NCBI GenBank assembly: GCA_049273855.1
Contig: JBASRN010000022.1
Location: 10,907 to 74,906 of the forward strand
From: Blastocatellia bacterium
GTDB lineage: Bacteria; Acidobacteriota; Blastocatellia; UBA7656
Reading direction: 5' to 3'
DNA length: 64,000 nucleotides
Shown here piece by piece: positions 43,067-64,000 of this stretch (the first letter of the stretch is position 1; the number at the start of each line of letters is the position of its first letter). The notes below the pieces were generated by a model. It saw nothing but the letters and a program-made list of their open reading frames with translations. It was not told the DNA's origin and did not search any database. The position numbers and the translations under genes were made by a program.

Positions 43067-43666
43067 AATGTGCCGCTGGGGCCGATTCGATTTGACGTTT
43101 GATCTTGCGTGCATTGGGTTTACCAAGAGCGCTGTCGCAAACTCCTATCGCTGCCAACCCCTTCAATCTGACCGAACCGCGTAAGCACGGTGACCGAAGC
43201 TTGGTTGCGACACGCTCTCACAGAGACCGGACGATGACATCGAAGTCCCGTTGCATGAATAGTTAGCCCGAACGGATCCGAGGCGCTGCGTGCTTGGCAT
43301 TGAGCTTGTATATTCACTCGCTGCGCTGAACCACTTCGACCTTTATCCCCGATCGAGCACGTTTAGAGGTTGAGGCTGGACGCGAGACGACTTTGTCAGG
43401 GTGGATGTCAACAATCACCGCAGTGCCTCCGAGACCCCGTTAAGTGATGTTAGGCGCGGCAGCGAGATACGAAGCTGAAAGGAGAGCAAAATCATGACCG
43501 ATGTAAGAACCTGCAGCGGAACGATCTGGGAGACGGGCTGTAGCAAGCTCCGGCTCTTGTGATGGGGCTTTCCATTTAAAAGACTGGACGCCAACCCGCA
43601 GTGCGCGATCGGGTCCAGCAGAGTCAGTCGAGCGGGGACAGGTCTCTGCTCGGTGAGCAGGAAGAA

Positions 43667-46138
43667 ATGGTTTCGATAGAACCGATCAAGAGCGATCTCA
43701 GAAGCTACGGGCCCAAGGGTGTAGCTCTGCTCGTCTGCCTTACTGTGGTTGCCAGTGCGTTGCTGGCGGTCTCGGTCGCAGGGGTTGTAACGGAGCCGAC
43801 CGAGTTTATCCTGTTCTGGGCGGCGCTGGCGCTTGTCATCGCTTTTACGTCTGCTCGCCGTCCAATTCGTTTCCCTGGCACGAACACAGGCGTTTCGGTC
43901 TCCGAGGCGCTGATGTTTCTCGGCGTGATAATGCTTGGGCCGTATCACGGTACGCTGCTAGCCGTATTCGAGATGCTGGTGGCGGTAAAGCGATTGAAAA
44001 TTAAACCGAGCTTGCAACTGTTCAACCTTTCGAACATAACGATCTCGTTTTTTGTAGCCGGGAAGCTCTACTACGCGCTTTCTGACTTTCTCGTGACGCA
44101 CCAGCTTGCGGAAGGCCTGGGTCAAGCTGTGCTCGCATTCGCGTTGCCGCTGATCGGTCTCGCCTTCGCACATTACCTTCTTCACATTCTGGTGTTGGCG
44201 GCGATGTCTGCCGCGCGTGGAACACATAAGGGACAGGCAGTGCGCGACACCCTGCCCTGGGAGCCGGTGACCTATCTGGCGTGCGCCACGATAGCCGGAA
44301 TGGTGCACTACGCATTCCTCAATAAGGGACTGGTGACGACGGCGGTGCTGCTCGTCCTCGTGTTGCCGATCCCGATCATCATCTACTACACGTTTAAGAC
44401 CTATCACGATAAGCTCGGCGAGCAAGAGAGTCACTACGGGGAGCTTACCAGCATTTACGATTCGATTCTCGAGATGCTGGCGATGGCGATCGATGCAAAG
44501 GACGACGTGACTCACGATCACATTCAGCGAGTGAAGCTGTTTGCTCGAAGGATGGGAGAGCGCGTCGGCCTGTCCGAACTGGAGATTGAAGCAGTGAAAG
44601 CAGGCGCCTTGCTACACGACATCGGCAAGATCGGAGTACCTGCGTATATCCTCAACAAGCCGGGCAAGCTCACAGAGCACGAGTTCGAGCAGATGAAGAT
44701 GCACACCATAATTGGCGCGGACATGCTCTCGAACGTCGACTTTCGTTATCCGGTGGTGCCCATTGTGCGGCATCACCACGAGCGATGGGATGGCCGAGGC
44801 TATCCCGACGGATTGAAGGGCGAAGCAATACCTATAACCGCACGCATTCTCACGCTCGTCGATAACTACGATGCGCTACGTTCGGACCGGCCGTACAAGA
44901 CCGGAATGACCCGCGAAGAGGCGCTAGCGTACATCAAGCAGAATGCGGGGACGTTCTTCGATCCAAAACTCGTTGAGATCTTTCTTGCGATGGCGGACGA
45001 ACTTGAAGTTGAAGCGGCGAGCTTCAAAGCTCCGCCCAGCAACACGCGGAGCAAGTCAACCGCCACGATGACAAACGCGAAGCCGGCTGCCGGGCTTGAA
45101 GCCGAGCCTCAGCTTGATCGCGCGACGGCTGCCTTAAACTCGATAGCCGAAACCAATCAGCGCGTGACGGCGCTATACGAAATGTCCCGCACTTTGTCGA
45201 GTATTCTGTCGGTCGAGGACACAGTGGCGATACTGACCAACCGGCTCTCGAAGCTTATACCTTTCACCACCTGCGCGATCTCGCTCTTCGATGCCACCCG
45301 CTCCGAGTTCGAAGTTGTCCATGCCGTCGGACTTAACGCCGAAAGATTCTCGAAGCGAAGAATGCCTGCCGAAGCAGGGATAACCGGCTGGGTCATAACC
45401 AACCAGAGGCCGATGTTCAACACTAATCCCGTGCTCGACCTCGCTTTTCTTGGCTCAGAGACGGCAGGCGAGTACAAGGCCGTTATCGTTTATCCGCTGG
45501 TGAAGAACGGTGAAGCGCTGGGCGCAATCGCGCTTTACTCGACCGAGATCGCGGCCTACGGCAGCGAGCACATTCAATTGATGGAGTCGGCTTCGCAGCC
45601 CGCATCCGACGCCATCCACAATGCGCTCACCTTCGAACAGGCGCAGCAGGCCGCGTTCACTGATCCGCTGACCGGGCTGGCCAGCCTTCGCGCAATTACC
45701 TCACAGTTCGAACGAGAACGATCGAGAAGCCAGCGGCTCGGCCTACCGCTTTCGCTGGTCGCGATCAGCGTTACCACGCTCGACGCGGCTGTTCTGATCG
45801 GCGAGAACGTACTCAACCAGCTCGGCAAACTCATAAGGCAGCAGGTGCGCGAGACCGACCTGGTCGCCCGCCACAGCGGCGACACGTTTGTTGTGTTGTT
45901 GCCTGAAAGCGGCCAGGACGATGTAAGCGATGTGCGCCGCCGGATACGTGAGGCGGTCGAAGAGCTGGCTTTCGCCGGAGGCGTCTGTGTGAGTCTGGGT
46001 TCGGCTACTAGCCCCGGCGATGGCAGCAACTTCGCAGAGCTGTTCCGCGCCGCGACTCTCGACTGCGTTGCCGGCCGCGACAGCCTCGATCTGATACCAG
46101 GTGACTTGGATCATGCGATAGCCGTCCAGATACGGTGA
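43667..46138 (+). CDS. Membrane-bound HD-GYP phosphodiesterase with GAF and degenerate GGDEF domains
   Basis: N-terminal multi-TM module, then HDHIQRV...HDIGKIGVP...HHERWDGRGYPDGL (HD-GYP). A GAF-like region follows. The GGDEF-like C-terminus reads RHSGDTFVVLL in place of GGDEF. Confidence 0.85.
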   Translation: MVSIEPIKSDLRSYGPKGVALLVCLTVVASALLAVSVAGVVTEPTEFILFWAALALVIAFTSARRPIRFPGTNTGVSVSEALMFLGVIMLGPYHGTLLAVFEMLVAVKRLKIKPSLQLFNLSNITISFFVAGKLYYALSDFLVTHQLAEGLGQAVLAFALPLIGLAFAHYLLHILVLAAMSAARGTHKGQAVRDTLPWEPVTYLACATIAGMVHYAFLNKGLVTTAVLLVLVLPIPIIIYYTFKTYHDKLGEQESHYGELTSIYDSILEMLAMAIDAKDDVTHDHIQRVKLFARRMGERVGLSELEIEAVKAGALLHDIGKIGVPAYILNKPGKLTEHEFEQMKMHTIIGADMLSNVDFRYPVVPIVRHHHERWDGRGYPDGLKGEAIPITARILTLVDNYDALRSDRPYKTGMTREEALAYIKQNAGTFFDPKLVEIFLAMADELEVEAASFKAPPSNTRSKSTATMTNAKPAAGLEAEPQLDRATAALNSIAETNQRVTALYEMSRTLSSILSVEDTVAILTNRLSKLIPFTTCAISLFDATRSEFEVVHAVGLNAERFSKRRMPAEAGITGWVITNQRPMFNTNPVLDLAFLGSETAGEYKAVIVYPLVKNGEALGAIALYSTEIAAYGSEHIQLMESASQPASDAIHNALTFEQAQQAAFTDPLTGLASLRAITSQFERERSRSQRLGLPLSLVAISVTTLDAAVLIGENVLNQLGKLIRQQVRETDLVARHSGDTFVVLLPESGQDDVSDVRRRIREAVEELAFAGGVCVSLGSATSPGDGSNFAELFRAATLDCVAGRDSLDLIPGDLDHAIAVQIR

Positions 46139-46353: not shown

Positions 46354-47025
46354 ATGACCCTCGACGATCTAAAGATTGGATTGATTGGCGGGACCGGCGA
46401 AGAGGGAAGGGGACTTGCGCTTAGATGGGCGCTCGCGGGCGCGCGAGTTACCATCGGATCACGCGCCATCGAGAAGGCGAAGACCACGGCGGATGAGTTG
46501 AACACGATCATAGGCGGTGATCGGATCGGCTATGCCACAAATCAGGTCGCGATTGCCCGTTCTGAGTTTGTGTTGCTGACCGTGCCGTTCGCGCACGCGG
46601 CTTCAGCTCTCGACGCTCACCGCCAGGATTTTCGTGAAGGCTCGATACTTCTGGACATCACTGTTCCGGTTTTGTTCGAGCAAGGTAGAGTGCTCCACGT
46701 CGACTTGCCCGAAGGTTCGGCAAGCGAGCACTTGCAGTCGCTGCTGCCTTCGTACGTTTCGCTGGTTGCTGCGTTCAAGACCGAGCCGGCTCACTTGCTT
46801 GCCGATACGCACGAGCCCCTGGAGTGCGACTCGTTTGTAGCTAGCGATTCAAAAGAGGCGAAGACGCGAGTGATGAACGCAATCAAGTTCATCGAAGGTC
46901 TCCGGCCAGTCGATGCCGGAACCTTGTACAGCGCGCGCGCGCTGGAGCGAATGACTGTGCTTGCGATAGGTATCAACCGTCGCTACAAAGTTAAGACCGC
47001 ACGCTATCGAATAGTTGGTTTGTAG
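46354..47025 (+). CDS. npdG: NADPH-dependent F420 reductase
   Basis: IGLIGGTGEEGRGLALRWALAGARVTIGSR Rossmann N-terminus. The ~220 aa length and position beside cofD fit. Confidence 0.8.
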   Translation: MTLDDLKIGLIGGTGEEGRGLALRWALAGARVTIGSRAIEKAKTTADELNTIIGGDRIGYATNQVAIARSEFVLLTVPFAHAASALDAHRQDFREGSILLDITVPVLFEQGRVLHVDLPEGSASEHLQSLLPSYVSLVAAFKTEPAHLLADTHEPLECDSFVASDSKEAKTRVMNAIKFIEGLRPVDAGTLYSARALERMTVLAIGINRRYKVKTARYRIVGL

Positions 47026-47107
47026 AGTCATGCGGGGTGCCACTATGCGCGCTCTCGACCCGCCATGCATTCGTTGAACGGGCGCAGCCGGAGGCCCAGC
47101 CGGAACT

Positions 47108-48058
47108 ATGAAGGTTACTGCCCTCGCTGGTGGAGTCGGTGCTTCGAAGTTCCTGGTGGGACTTGGCGATGTGATGCCCGCCGAAGACATCACCGTCATC
47201 GGCAACACCGGCGACGACATCGAGCTATTCGGGCTTCGCATCTGTCCTGACCTGGACACCGTCATCTACACCCTGGCCGGGATGGTCAATCAAGAAACCG
47301 GGTGGGGATTGGTGGGCGATACGTTCGAGTCTTTGAACTGGCTGAGGCGCTACGGCGAGGCTTCGTGGTTCAATCTCGGCGATCGTGATCTGGCCACACA
47401 CCTTTATCGCACGAATCAGCTTCGTCTCGGCACCTCCCTCACCGAAGTTACCGATAAGATCCGATGCTCGCTCGGAGTCCGCTCGCGAGTACTTCCGATG
47501 AGCGATGCCTACACGCCGACGCGAGTCGTGACCGATGAGGGCGAGATGCACTTCCAGGAGTACTTCGTGCGTCGAAGGTGCGAGCCTCGCGTGACAGAGA
47601 TTCGCTTTGATGGAATCGAGTCTTCCCTGCCTGCAACAGGTGTGCTGGATGCGATTCTTGAAGCCGACGTCGTGATTGTCTGCCCGAGCAATCCCGTTAT
47701 CAGCATCGGTCCGATTCTCGCAGTGCCCGGCGTTCGGGACGCGCTGAGACGGACACAGGCCACGGTCGTCGGTATTACGCCAATCATCGGAGGTCGAGCG
47801 CTGAAAGGCCCGACCGCCGATATGCTTCGAGACCTCGGGCACGAGGTGTCGGCAACTGGCGTCGCAGGAATCTATCGTGATTTCGTCAATATATTCGTGG
47901 TTGATGAAGCAGACGCAGCGAGCAAACCGCGAATCGAGATGTTCTGCAGGCGAGTGGTCGTAACGAATACCCTGATGAGCGGCTTTCAAGAGAAACAAGC
48001 TCTTGCTCGCCTGGTGATTGAAAGGGCGAGCGAACACCAAACCGGCGGAGCGACGTAA
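47108..48058 (+). CDS. cofD: 2-phospho-L-lactate transferase (F420 biosynthesis)
   Basis: MKVTALAGGVGASKFLVGL N-terminus, CPSNPVISIGPIL, and ~316 aa in length. Confidence 0.88.
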   Translation: MKVTALAGGVGASKFLVGLGDVMPAEDITVIGNTGDDIELFGLRICPDLDTVIYTLAGMVNQETGWGLVGDTFESLNWLRRYGEASWFNLGDRDLATHLYRTNQLRLGTSLTEVTDKIRCSLGVRSRVLPMSDAYTPTRVVTDEGEMHFQEYFVRRRCEPRVTEIRFDGIESSLPATGVLDAILEADVVIVCPSNPVISIGPILAVPGVRDALRRTQATVVGITPIIGGRALKGPTADMLRDLGHEVSATGVAGIYRDFVNIFVVDEADAASKPRIEMFCRRVVVTNTLMSGFQEKQALARLVIERASEHQTGGAT

Positions 48059-48061
48059 CCC

Positions 48062-48388
48062 GTGTCAGATACCATCGCAACGACCGCACTCACTTGCGTC
48101 AGACCGACCGGCGACCGAATAGATGTGGTCGTTGAGATCGGCGTGCCGTATCGAGCCGAGGACGGAGAGTGGGCCTGCGCGCTCTCGCTGGGAGCGCTGG
48201 AACTCGGGATGCCTCATGTAAAAGGCGACGACTCGCTGCAGGCACTGTGTCTCGCACTGTCGCTCGCAAGGCAGCTCTTGACTTACTTTGCAGAAGACGG
48301 CGGGCGGATTCTCATAGCGGGAACCGAGAGCGAGTTTCCGATGGACTCCTATTTCTCGTGGACGACGAATGCCAAAACGGATCGATGA
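48062..48388 (+). CDS. Hypothetical 108-aa protein embedded in the F420 operon
   Basis: The GTG start lies 3 nt after the cofD stop, and the stop lies 6 nt before the cofC ORF. I recognise no domain. Confidence 0.5.
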   Translation: MSDTIATTALTCVRPTGDRIDVVVEIGVPYRAEDGEWACALSLGALELGMPHVKGDDSLQALCLALSLARQLLTYFAEDGGRILIAGTESEFPMDSYFSWTTNAKTDR

Positions 48389-48394
48389 CTGGAG

Positions 48395-49093
48395 ATGACA
48401 TTCTCCCGCAATATGAAGGCGCTCCTAATCCCACTCAAGGACCCAGCAAACGCCAAGAGCCGTCTCGCCGGTTTGCTTTTGGCCGATGAGCGGCGCCGGC
48501 TTGCGTGGGCTATGTTCGAAGACGTGAGCCGCGCGGTCTGTGCAACCACCAAGCCTGATCGTGTTGTCCTTGTATCGAACTTCGAACCCGCGATCGAACA
48601 CGCGCGAAGCGTCGGCTGGGAGGTTCTGGTCGAAGCCTCTCAGCAGTCGGAAAGCGCTTCGGTTGACTGGGCATCCCGGGTGCTTGCCGAGCGCGGCTTC
48701 GACACAGTGATGCGGCTGCCAGCGGACATCCCGCTTGTTGAAGCGCGCGACATCGACGAACTGATCTCGGTCGAGCTTCGGGCTCCTGCCGCAGTGCTAG
48801 TTCCGTCGCGCGAAGGCACGGGCACGAATGCGATCCTCCGAACGCCGCCCGATCTGTTTCCATCGCGCTTCGGTCCGAACTCGCTCACGCTGCACAAACA
48901 AGAAGGGTTGCAAGCCGGCGTCGAGTGTCTGATCGTGACGAGCACGCGCATCGCGTTGGATATCGACGAACCGGTTGACCTGAAGGTGTTGCTTGAGACC
49001 GGCGGCAGCACGCAGACACTTTCGGTGCTGGCCGAGATGCGGATAGCTGGTAGGACAGTGCTGGGAGCGCGGCCGTCCCGGCCATCTGTCTAA
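48395..49093 (+). CDS. cofC: 2-phospho-L-lactate (or PEP/3PG) guanylyltransferase
   Basis: MKALLIPLKDPANAKSRL is the typical CofC N-terminus, and GTGTNAI is present. The start may be ATG 48413. Confidence 0.8.
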   Translation: MTFSRNMKALLIPLKDPANAKSRLAGLLLADERRRLAWAMFEDVSRAVCATTKPDRVVLVSNFEPAIEHARSVGWEVLVEASQQSESASVDWASRVLAERGFDTVMRLPADIPLVEARDIDELISVELRAPAAVLVPSREGTGTNAILRTPPDLFPSRFGPNSLTLHKQEGLQAGVECLIVTSTRIALDIDEPVDLKVLLETGGSTQTLSVLAEMRIAGRTVLGARPSRPSV

Positions 49094-49098
49094 ACATT

Positions 49099-49854
49099 GT
49101 GAAGATTCCCGAGATCACAGTACTTGGCGTGCCCGGCTTGCCCGAAGTGGTAGCGGGCGATGACATCGGCGCGCTCATTATTCAAGCTGTGAGCGAGGCA
49201 GATCTGGAAGTCCGCGACCGCGACATCTTCGTTGTCGCTCAGAAGATCGTCTCGAAATCGGAAGGCCGCAGCGTTCGACTCGATTCGATCGAGGCCTCGC
49301 CGCGCGCTCGCCAGTGGGCCGAGGCTTACGACAGAGATCCGCGGCTGGTCGAAGTCGTCCTGCGCGAATCCAAGCGCATCGTACGAATGGAACGCGGCGT
49401 CTGGATCGCCGAGACTCATCACGGCTTCGTCTGCGCGAACGCCGGAGTCGATGCATCAAACGTAGAGGAAGGCACGGCGCTTCTGCTTCCCGAAGACCCG
49501 GACGCTTCGGCGCGGCGAATTCAGAAGACACTCGAAAAAAGCTTCGTCGTGAGCGTGGCAGTGGTCGTCTCAGACACATTTGGCCGCCCCTGGCGTGAAG
49601 GGCTGATCAACGTTGCGATCGGCGTCGCGGGCCTCGCGCCGTTGATTGATTATCGCGGCGAGACAGATTCGCACGGCCGCCCACTTCGAGTGACGATCAT
49701 AGCGGTAGCAGACGAGATTGCTTCCGCTGCGGAGCTTGTGATGAAGAAGAAAGACGGCGTTCCGGTGGCCATCATTCGAGGCTTCGACTACGACTCTCAC
49801 GAAGCTTCGGGCCGGGAGTTGATACGCGCGCCGGAGCTCGACTTGTTTCGGTGA
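49099..49854 (+). CDS. cofE: Coenzyme F420-0:L-glutamate ligase, single-domain form
   Basis: GDDIGALI...VVAQKIVSKSEGR...HGFVCANAGVDASN...SDTFGRPWREG. At 251 aa it has no FbiB-type C-terminal nitroreductase domain. Confidence 0.88.
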   Translation: MKIPEITVLGVPGLPEVVAGDDIGALIIQAVSEADLEVRDRDIFVVAQKIVSKSEGRSVRLDSIEASPRARQWAEAYDRDPRLVEVVLRESKRIVRMERGVWIAETHHGFVCANAGVDASNVEEGTALLLPEDPDASARRIQKTLEKSFVVSVAVVVSDTFGRPWREGLINVAIGVAGLAPLIDYRGETDSHGRPLRVTIIAVADEIASAAELVMKKKDGVPVAIIRGFDYDSHEASGRELIRAPELDLFR

Positions 49855-49926: not shown

Positions 49927-51222
49927 ATGTTCACACGGCGAAGTTTCTTGAGATCAGTCGGGGGCGCGACTGCTGTCGGCGCCTTTACGTCAATCAGCGA
50001 GGGTGGTTTGGAGCGGATACTGGCTGTCACCCGCGGACTCAACGACTCGCCGGCAAAGCTCGCCGGAGACGAGAGCCTCTGGCGTGAAATCCAGCAGTCC
50101 TTCTCCGTCGATCGCTCGATCATCAACCTGAACAACGGCGGCGTCAGCCCTTCGCCTCGCGTCGTTCAGGAAGCGATGGCACGTCACCTCGCTTACTCCA
50201 ACGAAGCGCCCGTCTATACGATGTGGCGCATCCTTGAGCCTCAGATCGAAGCAGTTCGCCAGAGGCTAGCCGCCAGTTTTGGGTGCGACCCCGAGGAAAT
50301 GGCCATCACTCGCAACGCAAGCGAAGCACTCGAGATTTGCATCTTCGGGCTGGACCTCAAGCCCGGCGATGAAGTGCTCACCACCAATCAAGACTACCCG
50401 CGAATGCTCACTTCGTGGCGTCAGCGCGAACGCCGCGAAGGCATCAAGCTAAATCTGATTTCATTCCCTGTTCCGCCGCCCTCGATGGACGATCTTTTAG
50501 CACGATTTGAACGAGCGATCACGCCTCGCACGCGGGTGATTCAGGTCTGTCATATCACTAACCTAACCGGTCAGATTTTCCCCGTGAAACGAATCTGCCA
50601 GCTCGGCCGCGAGCGTGGTATCGAAGTCATCGTAGACGGGGCGCACGCATTTGCCCATTTTCCGTTCAAGCACGCTGACCTCGACTGCGACTACTACGGC
50701 ACAAGTTTGCACAAGTGGTTGCTTGCGCCGCACGGCACAGGTTTTCTCTACGTGCGCAAATCGAAGATCGCCAAGCTGTGGCCGTTGATGGCAGCCGACA
50801 GCAAACAGGACAACGACATTCGCAAGTTCGAAGAGATAGGCACCCACCCGGCCGCAAATCACAACGCCATTGCCGAAGCCCTCACCTTTCACGAAGGCAT
50901 CGGCCCCGAGCGCAAGGCCGCACGGCTTCGCTATCTAAAGGAGCGATGGGCGAGGAGGCTTGAAGCTCAGAAGGGCGTACGAGTGCTGACTCCTTACGAC
51001 ACGCAACAGTCTTGCGGCCTCGCGCTGTTTTCAATCGAAGGGATGGACCACGGCAAACTGGGCGCGCATCTGTGGGACCGAAATCGAATCCTCGTAACGC
51101 CAATCGAACACGACGAGTTCAAGGGCGTGCGCGTTACTCCAAACGTCTACACGACTATCAACGAGATCGACGCATTCTGCGAGGCGGTCGAGAAAGCCAT
51201 GCGGTCAGGGCTGTCGGCGTAG
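49927..51222 (+). CDS. Class V aminotransferase-fold PLP enzyme with a Tat signal peptide
   Basis: MFTRRSFLRSVGGATAVGAF is a twin-arginine motif. SLHKWL is a PLP-Lys-like motif. Confidence 0.8.
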   Translation: MFTRRSFLRSVGGATAVGAFTSISEGGLERILAVTRGLNDSPAKLAGDESLWREIQQSFSVDRSIINLNNGGVSPSPRVVQEAMARHLAYSNEAPVYTMWRILEPQIEAVRQRLAASFGCDPEEMAITRNASEALEICIFGLDLKPGDEVLTTNQDYPRMLTSWRQRERREGIKLNLISFPVPPPSMDDLLARFERAITPRTRVIQVCHITNLTGQIFPVKRICQLGRERGIEVIVDGAHAFAHFPFKHADLDCDYYGTSLHKWLLAPHGTGFLYVRKSKIAKLWPLMAADSKQDNDIRKFEEIGTHPAANHNAIAEALTFHEGIGPERKAARLRYLKERWARRLEAQKGVRVLTPYDTQQSCGLALFSIEGMDHGKLGAHLWDRNRILVTPIEHDEFKGVRVTPNVYTTINEIDAFCEAVEKAMRSGLSA

Positions 51223-61115: not shown

Positions 61116-61706
61116 TCACTTCGCGCCAACAATCTTCCTCACTTCTTCAATTATCGTCTCATCAGGCGGGCGATCTTGGGGGTCTTTGCCTACGTGCAGG
61201 AATCTGATCTTACCTTCTCGGTCCACGATGAAGATCGCTGGATGAGCAATCCCGCCGTGTTCCGCCGGATTAAGGACTCCGTACGAAGTTATGACCGTCT
61301 TGTCGGCGTCGGAAAGTATCTGAAACTTCGCGCCCGTAGTCTGGCCCATCGACCATGAAAACGACTGCTGGTCGGAGCTGATTGCGATCACATCTCCGCC
61401 CGCACGTTTGAAGTTGTTGTAGTCCTCAGCCATCCTGGTGAGTTGCTGTGTGCAAGCGGCTCACCAGTAGCCTCGATAGAACACCAACACGACCGGCGAG
61501 CGTTGCGTATATTCCGAGAGTATGACGAGCTTGCCGTCGCCGTTTGGAAGCGCGAAGTCCGGTGCTTTGTCGCCGAGCTTGAGCGTCGTTGACTTCGCGG
61601 TGACGGTTGGTTTAGGCAGAACGGGCGGCGCAAGCGGCGATTGCTGCGCAGCTACCGCACCGGCAAACAGGATGGTCAACGATAGAGCTGCAAGAAACGG
61701 CTTCAT
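61116..61706 (-). CDS. Exported Prx-like (AhpC/TSA, WCxxC-type) thiol peroxidase with an in-frame TGA at 61461-61463 (candidate selenocysteine, or else a pseudogene)
   Basis: Two same-frame ORFs are joined by a single TGA. The junction reads ...VVLVFYRGYW-[TGA]-AACTQQL..., where the family has WCxxC. A signal peptide is present at the N-terminus. Confidence 0.65.
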
Positions 61707-61960
61707 TGAAGTAAGAAATCTAAGAGTGCGGTCCAGCTTCTGTCAATCGCTCACGGGTCAGAGTTCATCGGTGACCAAGAGAAGTCCACCACGTCCAGGT
61801 CTTATCACCAGACCACGCTTCAGTCACAGATTCCTGTTGAGTCGAAAAGGAAATCTGCTTATACTGGGCGCATCCTGGACAAGGCTGATCCGATGAGATC
61901 GAATACACAAGTCTCTCCTACGCCCATGGAGTCTCGCCAACCTAAAGGAGCGGTTTTCGT

Positions 61961-62600: not shown

Positions 62601-63938
62601 ATGAACCAAGCCGATCAGTCGAGAGCATTCTTGCGATGCATCGAAGCCGAGTGCCGGCGCTATTACCCGATCGATGAGCGCCTCTACACGTGTCCTTTGT
62701 GCGGGGGGCTGCTCGACGTAGCTTATGACTTCCACCTGCCTTACACCATCCAGGAGATGATCGCGCTCTTTCAGGAACGTAAGACGATTGAGGCCGATCC
62801 CGATCGCAGCGGAGTGTGGCGCTTTCGCGAGCTGCTGCCTTTCACCGACGATTGCTCTCATGTCGTGACGCTTGCCGAGGGCAACACGCCGATTTACACG
62901 GCTCCGCGCTCGGCTGAGTATGCGGAGATCACATCCCTCCGCTTCAAGCATCAAGGGATGAACCCGACCGGCTCGTTCAAAGACAACGGCATGACGACGG
63001 GCGTCACTCAAGCGGTGCGCATTGGAGCTAGGGCGGTTGCCTGTGCTTCGACGGGAAACACTTCGGCATCGATGGCGGCTTACGCTGCGCGAGCCGGAGT
63101 GCGCGCGGTTGTGTTCATACCGGCAGGCGAGATCTCCTGGGGCAAGCTCTCACAAGCGCTCGAGTACGGCGCTACGGTTGTGGAGCTGGAAGGAAACTTC
63201 GACGACGCCATGCGAGTCGTGCGCGAAGTCGCCGCCGAAACCGATCTGTATCTTCTGAACTCGATCAATCCTTTCCGTCTCGAAGGTCAGAAGACGATCA
63301 TCGTCGAGATGATCGAGCAATGCTCGTGGCGGGCGCCGGAGTGGATTGTGCTGCCCGGTGGAAACCTGGGCAACGTATCGGCATTTGGCAAGGCGCTGCA
63401 CGAGCTGGCCGAGCTGGGCTTCATCGATCGCGTGCCTCGACTTGCGGTGATTCAAGCGGAAGGCGCCGCGCCTTTCTACGAGCTGTTCGCGTCATCCGAT
63501 CGTTCGCGACTCAACGCGGTGCAGAAGGCCTCGACGCTTGCGACTGCCATCAAGATCGGCAATCCGGTTTCCTGGAAGAAGGCGGTGCGCGCGCTTGAAT
63601 GGACCGATGGAGTTGTCGAGCGAGTGAGCGAACAGGAGATCGCCGACGCCAAAGCAATCATCGGGCGAGACGGCATCGGGTGCGAGCCCGCGTCTGCAGC
63701 CACGCTTGCAGGGATCAAACGACTGGTCGCCGCCAGCGTCATCGAGCCCGACAGCGATATCATCGCGGTGCTGACCGGCAATCTGTTGAAGGACCCGAAC
63801 TACACGGTCGACTATCACACCGGCAAACTTGGTATTGGCGCCGGCGACGAAAGACGCGCGATCACGGGCAACTTCGCCAATCGCCCGATGCGCGCGCCGG
63901 CGGACAAGGACGAGATCAAACGACTGTTGAGCTTGTGA
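62601..63938 (+). CDS. thrC: Threonine synthase
   Basis: N-terminal Cys-rich segment (CIEAECRRYYP...CPLCGG), GSFKDNGM PLP lysine, and ASTGNTSAS. Confidence 0.92.
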   Translation: MNQADQSRAFLRCIEAECRRYYPIDERLYTCPLCGGLLDVAYDFHLPYTIQEMIALFQERKTIEADPDRSGVWRFRELLPFTDDCSHVVTLAEGNTPIYTAPRSAEYAEITSLRFKHQGMNPTGSFKDNGMTTGVTQAVRIGARAVACASTGNTSASMAAYAARAGVRAVVFIPAGEISWGKLSQALEYGATVVELEGNFDDAMRVVREVAAETDLYLLNSINPFRLEGQKTIIVEMIEQCSWRAPEWIVLPGGNLGNVSAFGKALHELAELGFIDRVPRLAVIQAEGAAPFYELFASSDRSRLNAVQKASTLATAIKIGNPVSWKKAVRALEWTDGVVERVSEQEIADAKAIIGRDGIGCEPASAATLAGIKRLVAASVIEPDSDIIAVLTGNLLKDPNYTVDYHTGKLGIGAGDERRAITGNFANRPMRAPADKDEIKRLLSL

Positions 63939-64000
63939 AGAACGCGTTGCAGACCGATCAGCATATTGAACATAAAAGATCGTAGTACCGCCTTTCAGGA

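Follow-up and report, generated by a model that had tools for sequence, protein, structure and literature searches.

A functional bacterial selenoprotein gene very probably lies on the minus strand of contig JBASRN010000022.1 from a Blastocatellia bacterium, within the 64-kb stretch of DNA analyzed here (hereafter the window). We propose that its in-frame UGA encodes selenocysteine (Sec, or U in motifs), that a hairpin just 3' of this codon is a Sec insertion sequence (SECIS) element, that the product is an exported peroxiredoxin (Prx)-like protein with a UxxC redox motif, and that Sec is the ancestral state of the gene. The gene (61116 to 61706) consists of an 81-codon open reading frame (ORF; 61706-61464) and a 114-codon continuation (61460-61119) in the same frame, with one TGA between them (61463-61461) and a TGA stop codon at 61118-61116. 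Read-through would yield 81 + 1 + 114 = 196 codons, which reproduces the layout that the original prediction had drawn from two listed minus-strand ORFs (61461-61706, 81 residues; 61116-61433, 105 residues). The 196-residue product matched PF00578 (AhpC-TSA) with an E-value (E) of 5.2e-33 and 114 bits against a cutoff of 26, and it also matched Redoxin, in agreement with the AhpC/TSA (peroxiredoxin) fold assigned to it earlier. The TGA stands in the context VFYRGYW-[TGA]-AAC-T, where it specifies residue 82, the first position of the W-U-A-A-C redox motif. The second residue of UxxC, Cys85, is encoded by TGC at 61452-61454; it is invariant in two alignments and is the presumed resolving partner of Sec82. 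A read-through scan of the window returned 58 TGAs with open flanks, and only the one at 61463 sits in a redox motif.

Comparison with relatives provides the first line of evidence that this TGA is a Sec codon. We retrieved ortholog DNA from GTDB species-representative genomes, metagenomes of the Joint Genome Institute (JGI), and individual contigs, and counted the codon at the TGA column. Independent assemblies of Blastocatellia genomes and of soil metagenomes yielded 111 orthologs, of which 106 carry TGA and 5 carry TGC. Metagenome-assembled genomes of Blastocatellia (Acidobacteriota) are the overwhelming source of the close orthologs (58-85% identity), three of which bear other labels. Distant CPxC-type homologs from Gemmatimonadota, Bacteroidota, and other phyla have TGC or TGT in all cases and all read FYRG[FY]WCxxC at this position, which matches the subfamily motif FYRGxWCxxC suggested at the outset. 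In all more distant homologs retrieved, the homologous residue is Cys and never Trp. A Sec/Cys pair, in which an in-frame UGA lines up with the Cys codons of homologs, is one of the signs by which selenoprotein genes are recognized.

Conserved coding sequence under purifying selection 3' of the UGA is another such sign, and the selection seen here is strong. The frame of ~114 codons 3' of the TGA is uninterrupted in all complete TGA orthologs, so the coding-like character first noticed in the window alone extends to its relatives. For 26 genome-derived TGA forms, the ratio of nonsynonymous to synonymous substitution rates (dN/dS, Nei-Gojobori method) was 0.090 upstream of the TGA and 0.117 downstream of it, with dS values of ~1.4-1.6 that correspond to saturated synonymous sites. 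The relaxed evolution past the TGA that would have spoken for a decayed gene was not seen.

Public annotation carries the imprint of the same codon. Homologs in protein databases comprise ~9 full-length Cys forms, ~35 clusters of C-terminal fragments of ~110 residues that start just after the motif, and ~8 N-terminal fragments that end exactly at ...FYRGFW. Entries for the gene itself are mostly C-terminal pieces of ~110 residues and N-terminal pieces of 80-150 residues, which are named 'peroxiredoxin' or 'hypothetical protein' (P0012-P0054). This pattern arises because gene callers split the gene at a conserved in-frame TGA. Two JGI calls (P0002 and P0006) spuriously place Trp at the Sec position ('FWWGAC'). 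At least one NCBI gene model, on the related contig L165 (15156-15698, 180 residues), appears to span the TGA, and the NCBI pipeline may already treat that gene as a selenoprotein.

The second line of evidence is the hairpin, a bacterial SECIS core of the form CUCACC-AGGAU-GG(C)UGAG at 61442-61425 on the minus strand, with its loop at 61436-61432, a bulged C at 61429, and a spacing of 24 nucleotides (nt) from the UGA. In the TGA forms, and in these alone, synonymous variation is all but lost from codon +7 to codon +12 past the TGA, and these 18 nt are the hairpin. The codons are CTC in 25/26, ACC in 24/24, AGG in 22/22, YTG in 25/25, GCT in 24/26, and GAG in 25/25 of the TGA forms, while codon usage on either side is free (~1.8 bits at four-fold sites). 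The Cys forms have ACG/ACA, AAG, CTT, GCG, and CAA/GAA in this interval. The ortholog consensus is CUCACC-AGGNU-GG(C)UGAG, with six pairs and one bulged C, and in an alignment of 84 TGA forms (69 of them distinct) these six pairs can form in 98.8% of cases. RNAalifold independently finds the same core helix and adds an A-U pair that closes the loop. Of the stem-loop originally drawn at 61421-61447, the core is conserved, but the two extra lower pairs are not (A20-U46 fails in 21/69).

The hairpin also follows the codon that it would serve. It folds in 106/106 TGA forms (-2.5 to -8.1 kcal/mol) and is lost in 4/5 Cys forms (0 to -0.7 kcal/mol). The exception among the Cys forms, L169 (gene 267-860 on a Logan SRR25722000 contig, encoding protein P0001), is more closely related to the window protein than any other form, with 82% identity; it keeps a remnant stem of -3.6 kcal/mol, and its loop Gs are gone (AGG to AAA). 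L169 looks like a recent conversion from Sec to Cys in which the SECIS element is half decayed, as judged from the sequence. A published model of bacterial SECIS (bSECIS) elements requires an apical loop of 3-9 nt, an upper stem of 4-16 bp, a G in the first two loop positions, a loop of the form N1-G-[G/U]-N-N2 in which N1 and N2 pair, and a spacing of 16-37 nt from the UGA (PMC13188914). The conserved hairpin has this geometry, with the loop A-G-[G/U]-N-U, 6-7 pairs with one bulge, and the 24-nt spacing, in keeping with the earlier remark that an apical GG ~25 nt from the UGA is spaced as in a SECIS element.

The distribution of Sec and Cys forms suggests which came first. The neighborhood thrC-PilZ-[gene]-aconitase (acn) surrounds Sec forms (L001, L020, L026, and L032) as well as Cys forms (L009, L013, and partly L017), and the two kinds are therefore positional orthologs. 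The deep branches of a neighbor-joining tree all belong to Sec forms, with the Cys forms nested among them at five distinct points; the outgroups to the Blastocatellia ortholog group all have Cys. The simplest history that these sequences suggest would be a single Cys-to-Sec change at the base of the group, followed by at least five Sec-to-Cys reversions. On this comparative reading, Sec would be ancestral within the Blastocatellia ortholog group, and the hairpin would have decayed after each reversion.

Relatives also supplied a part of the Sec-insertion machinery. With SelA, SelB, and SelD of E. coli (NC_000913) as tblastn queries, we found selA in L023 (4908-6332). It is also present in L164 (10001-11401; a contig of 484 kb) and L165 (10001-11428; GCA_036277095.1), and on each of these three contigs it lies ~3.7 kb upstream of the TGA gene. 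SelA of L023, a Blastocatellia contig, matches TIGR00474 from end to end with 582.7 bits against a cutoff of 267.9; as a query, it returned thousands of SelA proteins, and many of the matches at ≥70% identity bear the NCBI name 'L-seryl-tRNA(Sec) selenium transferase [Blastocatellia bacterium]'. The gene order in L023, L164, and L165 is selA, a membrane-protein gene, thrC, a PilZ-domain gene, and the TGA gene with the same SECIS element. Of this order, the window has thrC, the PilZ-domain gene, and the TGA gene, and it ends (position 64000) 62 nt after thrC. In the genome closest to the window, L001, selA is not within 10 kb of the TGA gene.

The gene that always follows selA in these Acidobacteriota, which encodes ~470-530 residues (L023 6398-7927; L164 11505-12923; L165 11505-13067; L166 11521-13119), has a Pro/Glu-rich, low-complexity product with two hydrophobic (membrane) segments and no Pfam or NCBIfam match. 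We considered it as a divergent selB and rejected it on account of this composition, the two membrane segments, and the lack of a family match.

The N-terminus of the protein supports its predicted export. A signal peptide (MKPFLAALSLTILFAGAVAA, followed by QQ) is encoded at 61641-61706 on the minus strand, and a Pro-rich linker (QSPLAPP...) comes after it. The architecture of a Sec-type signal peptide, i.e., K/R among the first residues, a 14- to 18-residue hydrophobic core, and A-x-A followed by Q at the cleavage site, is kept in 85/89 distinct ortholog N-termini, although the residues themselves vary; the signal peptide first seen in the window is thus a feature of the group, and the protein is probably exported to the periplasm. 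The original prediction considered an exported selenoprotein unusual, but selenoproteins with signal peptides are documented (SaoB, SaoX, and SaoC).

We modeled the structure with AlphaFold on the natural Cys ortholog P0001. The predicted local distance difference test score was >90 from residue 45 onward and <50 for residues 1-44, which comprise the signal peptide and linker. Among the closest structures found with Foldseek, 3hjp had a template modeling (TM) score of 0.90 with a root-mean-square deviation of 1.8 Å, AhpE (1xxu) had a TM score of 0.89, and 4gqf was also present; the model therefore predicts a peroxiredoxin fold, and it places the residue equivalent to Sec just before the active-site helix. 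The active site departs from that of peroxiredoxins. In the best sequence match in the PDB, PrxQ/BCP 2cx3 (E 4e-18), the peroxidatic Cys aligns with Cys85 of the window protein. The PxxxT/SxxC(P) motif is not kept; the window protein reads R-G-Y-W-U-A-A-C, with Arg78 in place of Pro and Sec82 in place of Thr/Ser. The catalytic Arg is not kept either, being replaced by Pro156 (A-H-P-A-I-F-I-V versus A-K-R-A-V-F-I-V in 2cx3), and Pro156 is invariant across the wider WCxxC family. Sec82 aligns with the N-terminal nucleophilic Cys of the WCxxC motif in DsbE (WCGPC; 3gl3) and ResA. The orthologs vary within U-[GAS][AS]-C, of which W-U-A-A-C in the window is one version. Sequence and model together point to a peroxiredoxin fold that carries a thioredoxin/TlpA-style U-x-x-C center.

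We propose the following mechanism. The UGA at 61463-61461 would be decoded as Sec during translation, as its conservation and the known bacterial mechanism suggest, with the hairpin at 61442-61425 acting as the SECIS element that recruits SelB-GTP and Sec-tRNA(Sec) as the UGA enters the A site. The 196-residue precursor, which has the features of a protein with a Sec-type signal peptide, would be exported to the periplasm. There, the selenolate of Sec82 would most likely attack an oxidized envelope substrate, which could be a peroxide or a disulfide or sulfenate of a protein or low-molecular-weight compound. Cys85 would then resolve the intermediate to an intramolecular Sec82-Cys85 selenenylsulfide, and an envelope thiol-reducing pathway would re-reduce it.

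Several observations weigh against a Sec-encoding gene with a SECIS element. The energy of the window hairpin is modest (-4.5 kcal/mol for the 18-nt core and -6.1 kcal/mol in a 33-nt context), it does not differ significantly from shuffled sequences (z = -0.71), and it falls short of the -7.5 kcal/mol threshold of the bSECIS model, which some genuine bSECIS elements also fail (PMC13188914). Covariation is thin, since the element is almost invariant; one pair (28-39 of the hairpin alignment) varies among A-U, G-C, G-U, and U-A, and there are 3-4 uncompensated mismatches. Rfam returned no match at gathering thresholds across the whole window or at E up to 10 for 61300-61560, and evidently has no model that covers this hairpin. 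As for the machinery, the 64-kb window contains no selA, selB, selD, or tRNA-Sec; in 1.38 Mb of related DNA, selB and selD were not found by tblastn and only SelA was matched; and ARAGORN showed the window to be free of tRNA genes and identified no tRNA-Sec among 33 related loci. The failure to find selB, selC, and selD is a gap in the case, if an unsurprising one with only ~20 kb covered per related genome. The search for the machinery, while empty in the window, did reveal selA beside the TGA gene in the three related genomes. Since the energy of the hairpin is unremarkable, its significance is drawn from comparative evidence, and the case for it as a SECIS element rests on conservation rather than stability. 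The comparison across relatives that had been recommended gave a clear outcome, as TGA forms preserve the hairpin at synonymous sites and Cys forms show it decayed or gone.

A further point on the same side of the balance is that naked RNA prefers a different hairpin, which contains the UGA itself. In the minimum-free-energy fold, UGGUGAG (the Trp codon, the Sec UGA, and the next G) pairs with CUCACCA (61466-61436, minus strand). This hairpin and the SECIS element are mutually exclusive because both use the 5' arm CUCACC[A]. The UGA-containing hairpin is pairable in 99% of cases across orthologs, and covariation provides no test of it because its 5' arm is fixed by coding. We rejected it as the SECIS element itself, given that it does not account for the constraint on GCU GAG, its loop would be too near the UGA, and RNAalifold favors the downstream hairpin. 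The 3' arm of the SECIS element, GG(C)UGAG, almost repeats the recoding site UGGUGAG. The overlap of the two hairpins may be a by-product of this complementarity or may reflect a switch driven by the ribosome. If such a switch exists, the UGA and half of the SECIS element would be sequestered until the ribosome melts the first hairpin, and the SelB-binding hairpin would be exposed only at the moment of decoding.

The only rival to Sec insertion that is not already refuted is that the UGA is read by another system, either an opal-suppressing allo-tRNA or a SelB-dependent tRNA(Cys)-UCA like selC*, which would insert Ser, Cys, or another residue. We consider this improbable. Allo-tRNAs with a possible role in nonsense suppression have been reported in Acidobacteria, and opal suppressors of the selC* tRNA(Cys) type are known from other phyla but have not been reported in Acidobacteria (Mukai et al., PMC5389517). 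The failure to find selB, selC, and selD in the ~1.4 Mb of related DNA (~20 kb per genome) also leaves room for such a system. On the other hand, the recoding is confined to a specific site and goes with a conserved hairpin whose loop fits the SelB-type SECIS pattern, whereas TGA is otherwise the commonest stop codon, and the recoded position is that of the redox-active Cys, as known Sec/Cys pairs also show. In addition, selA is conserved across Blastocatellia and lies near the gene in three genomes, and to our knowledge its only role is to make Sec-tRNA(Sec).

It is even less likely that the locus encodes two polypeptides, namely, an exported N-terminal peptide of 81 residues and a C-terminal protein with its own initiation. 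Such an arrangement is hinted at by Met92, which follows the TGA in the window, and by database entries that start at M/V-QLTRL. However, Met92 is Leu in nearly all orthologs, the alternative starts (Q87 as M or V) vary between orthologs, and the TGA falls in the middle of one compact thioredoxin-type fold, where two separate products would halve the active-site motif.

A recent TGC-to-TGA nonsense mutation, which would leave a pseudogene or a truncated 81-residue product and which the original prediction had named as its alternative, is barely credible. In one sequence, a single in-frame stop is just how such a mutation would be expected to look, and gene callers do split the gene. But the TGA is present in 106/111 orthologs across up to ~40% protein divergence and saturated dS, no complete ortholog has a second stop or frameshift, and the TGA forms are not one recent clone, with Sec forms on all deep branches of the tree. 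Since the frame is intact and the downstream dN/dS is 0.117, we exclude that the TGA is a sequencing error or a recent nonsense mutation and that the gene is a pseudogene. Least likely of all, genome-wide reassignment of TGA (table 4 or 25; Trp or Gly) has in its favor only the 'WW' recorded in P0002 and P0006 and can be dismissed, because TGA serves as an ordinary stop more often than any other codon in the window (9/20 Pfam-supported genes, the selenoprotein gene included), ends the ortholog in 9 other genomes as well, and aligns with Cys but never Trp in relatives.

With Sec insertion as the preferred reading, the gene can be placed among known systems. Prx-like thiol:disulfide oxidoreductase selenoproteins (pfam00578; UxxC/UxxU) are 'predicted with high confidence' (PMC13188914, PMC9312934, PMC2398784), and a Global Ocean Sampling survey counted 225 members of 'Prx-like 1 (pfam00578, UxxC)' (PMC2398784). 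Like these, the window protein has an AhpC-TSA domain, Sec as the first residue of UxxC, abundant Cys homologs, and a SECIS element inside the coding region. Earlier examples, however, come mainly from Deltaproteobacteria, Clostridia, and marine metagenomes, whereas the Blastocatellia group is found in soil and throughout the class, and has as its own features a signal peptide, the motif FYRGxW-U-[GAS][AS]-C-T, and a near-invariant SECIS element. The gene belongs to the known Prx-like UxxC family by its published definition (PMC9312934, PMC13188914), and the lineage-specific ortholog group is new.

Resemblance to other redox families is partial. The best NCBIfam match is SelL/PRX-like2 (NF040769, 'SelL-related redox protein'; E 7.5e-18), which likewise has a peroxiredoxin fold in which the Prx active site gives way to a thioredoxin-like CxxC-type motif, but the match reaches 64.8 bits against a cutoff of 120, and SelL has UxxU where the window protein has UxxC. 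SelL is itself a selenoprotein family (PMC2398784). PrxQ/BCP and AhpE are the closest solved structures, and Cys85 aligns with their peroxidatic Cys, yet the active-site signature is lost, and scores against the NCBIfam peroxiredoxin models all fall far short of the cutoffs. The exported proteins TlpA, ResA, and DsbE (CcmG) share a thioredoxin-type fold and W-C-x-x-C with the window protein, and a ResA model was matched with E 3.5e-17. These matches nonetheless remain below cutoffs (NF002854, 62.9 versus 170; TIGR00385, 24.5 versus 123), and the overall fold is nearer to Prx than to TlpA. No cytochrome-maturation genes were found near the selenoprotein gene.

The SECIS element can be compared with that of E. 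coli fdhF in the same way. Both are hairpins in the coding region 3' of the UGA with a small G-[G/U] loop, N1-N2 closure, a bulged stem nucleotide, and a spacing within 16-37 nt. In contrast to fdhF-type elements and the bSECISearch model, the Blastocatellia stem is a shorter one of 6-7 bp, its energy of -4.5 to -6.1 kcal/mol is weaker than the -7.5 kcal/mol threshold of the model, and its bulge is on the 3' arm. The loop of the fdhF SECIS element is AGGUCU, which the loop of the window hairpin resembles.

Other features of the window surround the gene. Just 5' of its ATG, a sigma-70-like promoter (TTGACA, an 18-nt spacer, and TAGATT; 61717-61746, minus strand) was found as a consensus match, in a scan that returned 2 sites versus 0.4 expected from shuffles. 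The divergent PilZ-domain gene (PF07238; 61961-62437, plus strand), identified by Pfam and synteny, is a neighbor of the selenoprotein gene in many genomes and is counted among cyclic-di-GMP signaling genes, as is the gene for a large HD-GYP/GAF/GGDEF protein at 43601-46138 (plus strand). Threonine synthase (thrC; 62601-63938, plus strand), supported by a domain match and synteny, is a further conserved neighbor, and in the L023 clade selA is two genes beyond it. More distant genes on the plus strand include a coenzyme F420 cluster at 46354-49854, which comprises an F420-dependent NADP oxidoreductase, cofD, cofC, and an F420-0:gamma-glutamyl ligase (cofE), and a class-V aminotransferase (PF00266) at 49927-51222. 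The PF00266 family includes cysteine desulfurases and selenocysteine lyases.

Altogether, the proposal that a Sec codon replaces the first Cys of WCxxC is supported by the orthologs, the hairpin, purifying selection, and selA in relatives. Recognition of the gene as a selenoprotein corrects its gene model across the class Blastocatellia and adds a well-supported selenoprotein and SECIS element to a soil phylum in which reported examples are very scarce. A 2006 survey listed Acidobacteria with 3 selenoprotein families and 4 proteins, and our literature search retrieved no paper that links Blastocatellia with selenocysteine. The existing picture of the selenoprotein mechanism itself is unchanged. 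The repeated in situ reversions from Sec to Cys, with decay of the SECIS element, would form a tidy natural experiment on Sec/Cys exchange. More speculatively, and in our view unlikely as a whole, the ribosome could drive a switch between the two hairpins and the envelope redox chemistry of Acidobacteriota could have an unrecognized dependence on selenium. If true, a periplasmic selenoprotein in ~95% of a mostly aerobic soil class would make redox processes in the envelope of these bacteria dependent on selenium.

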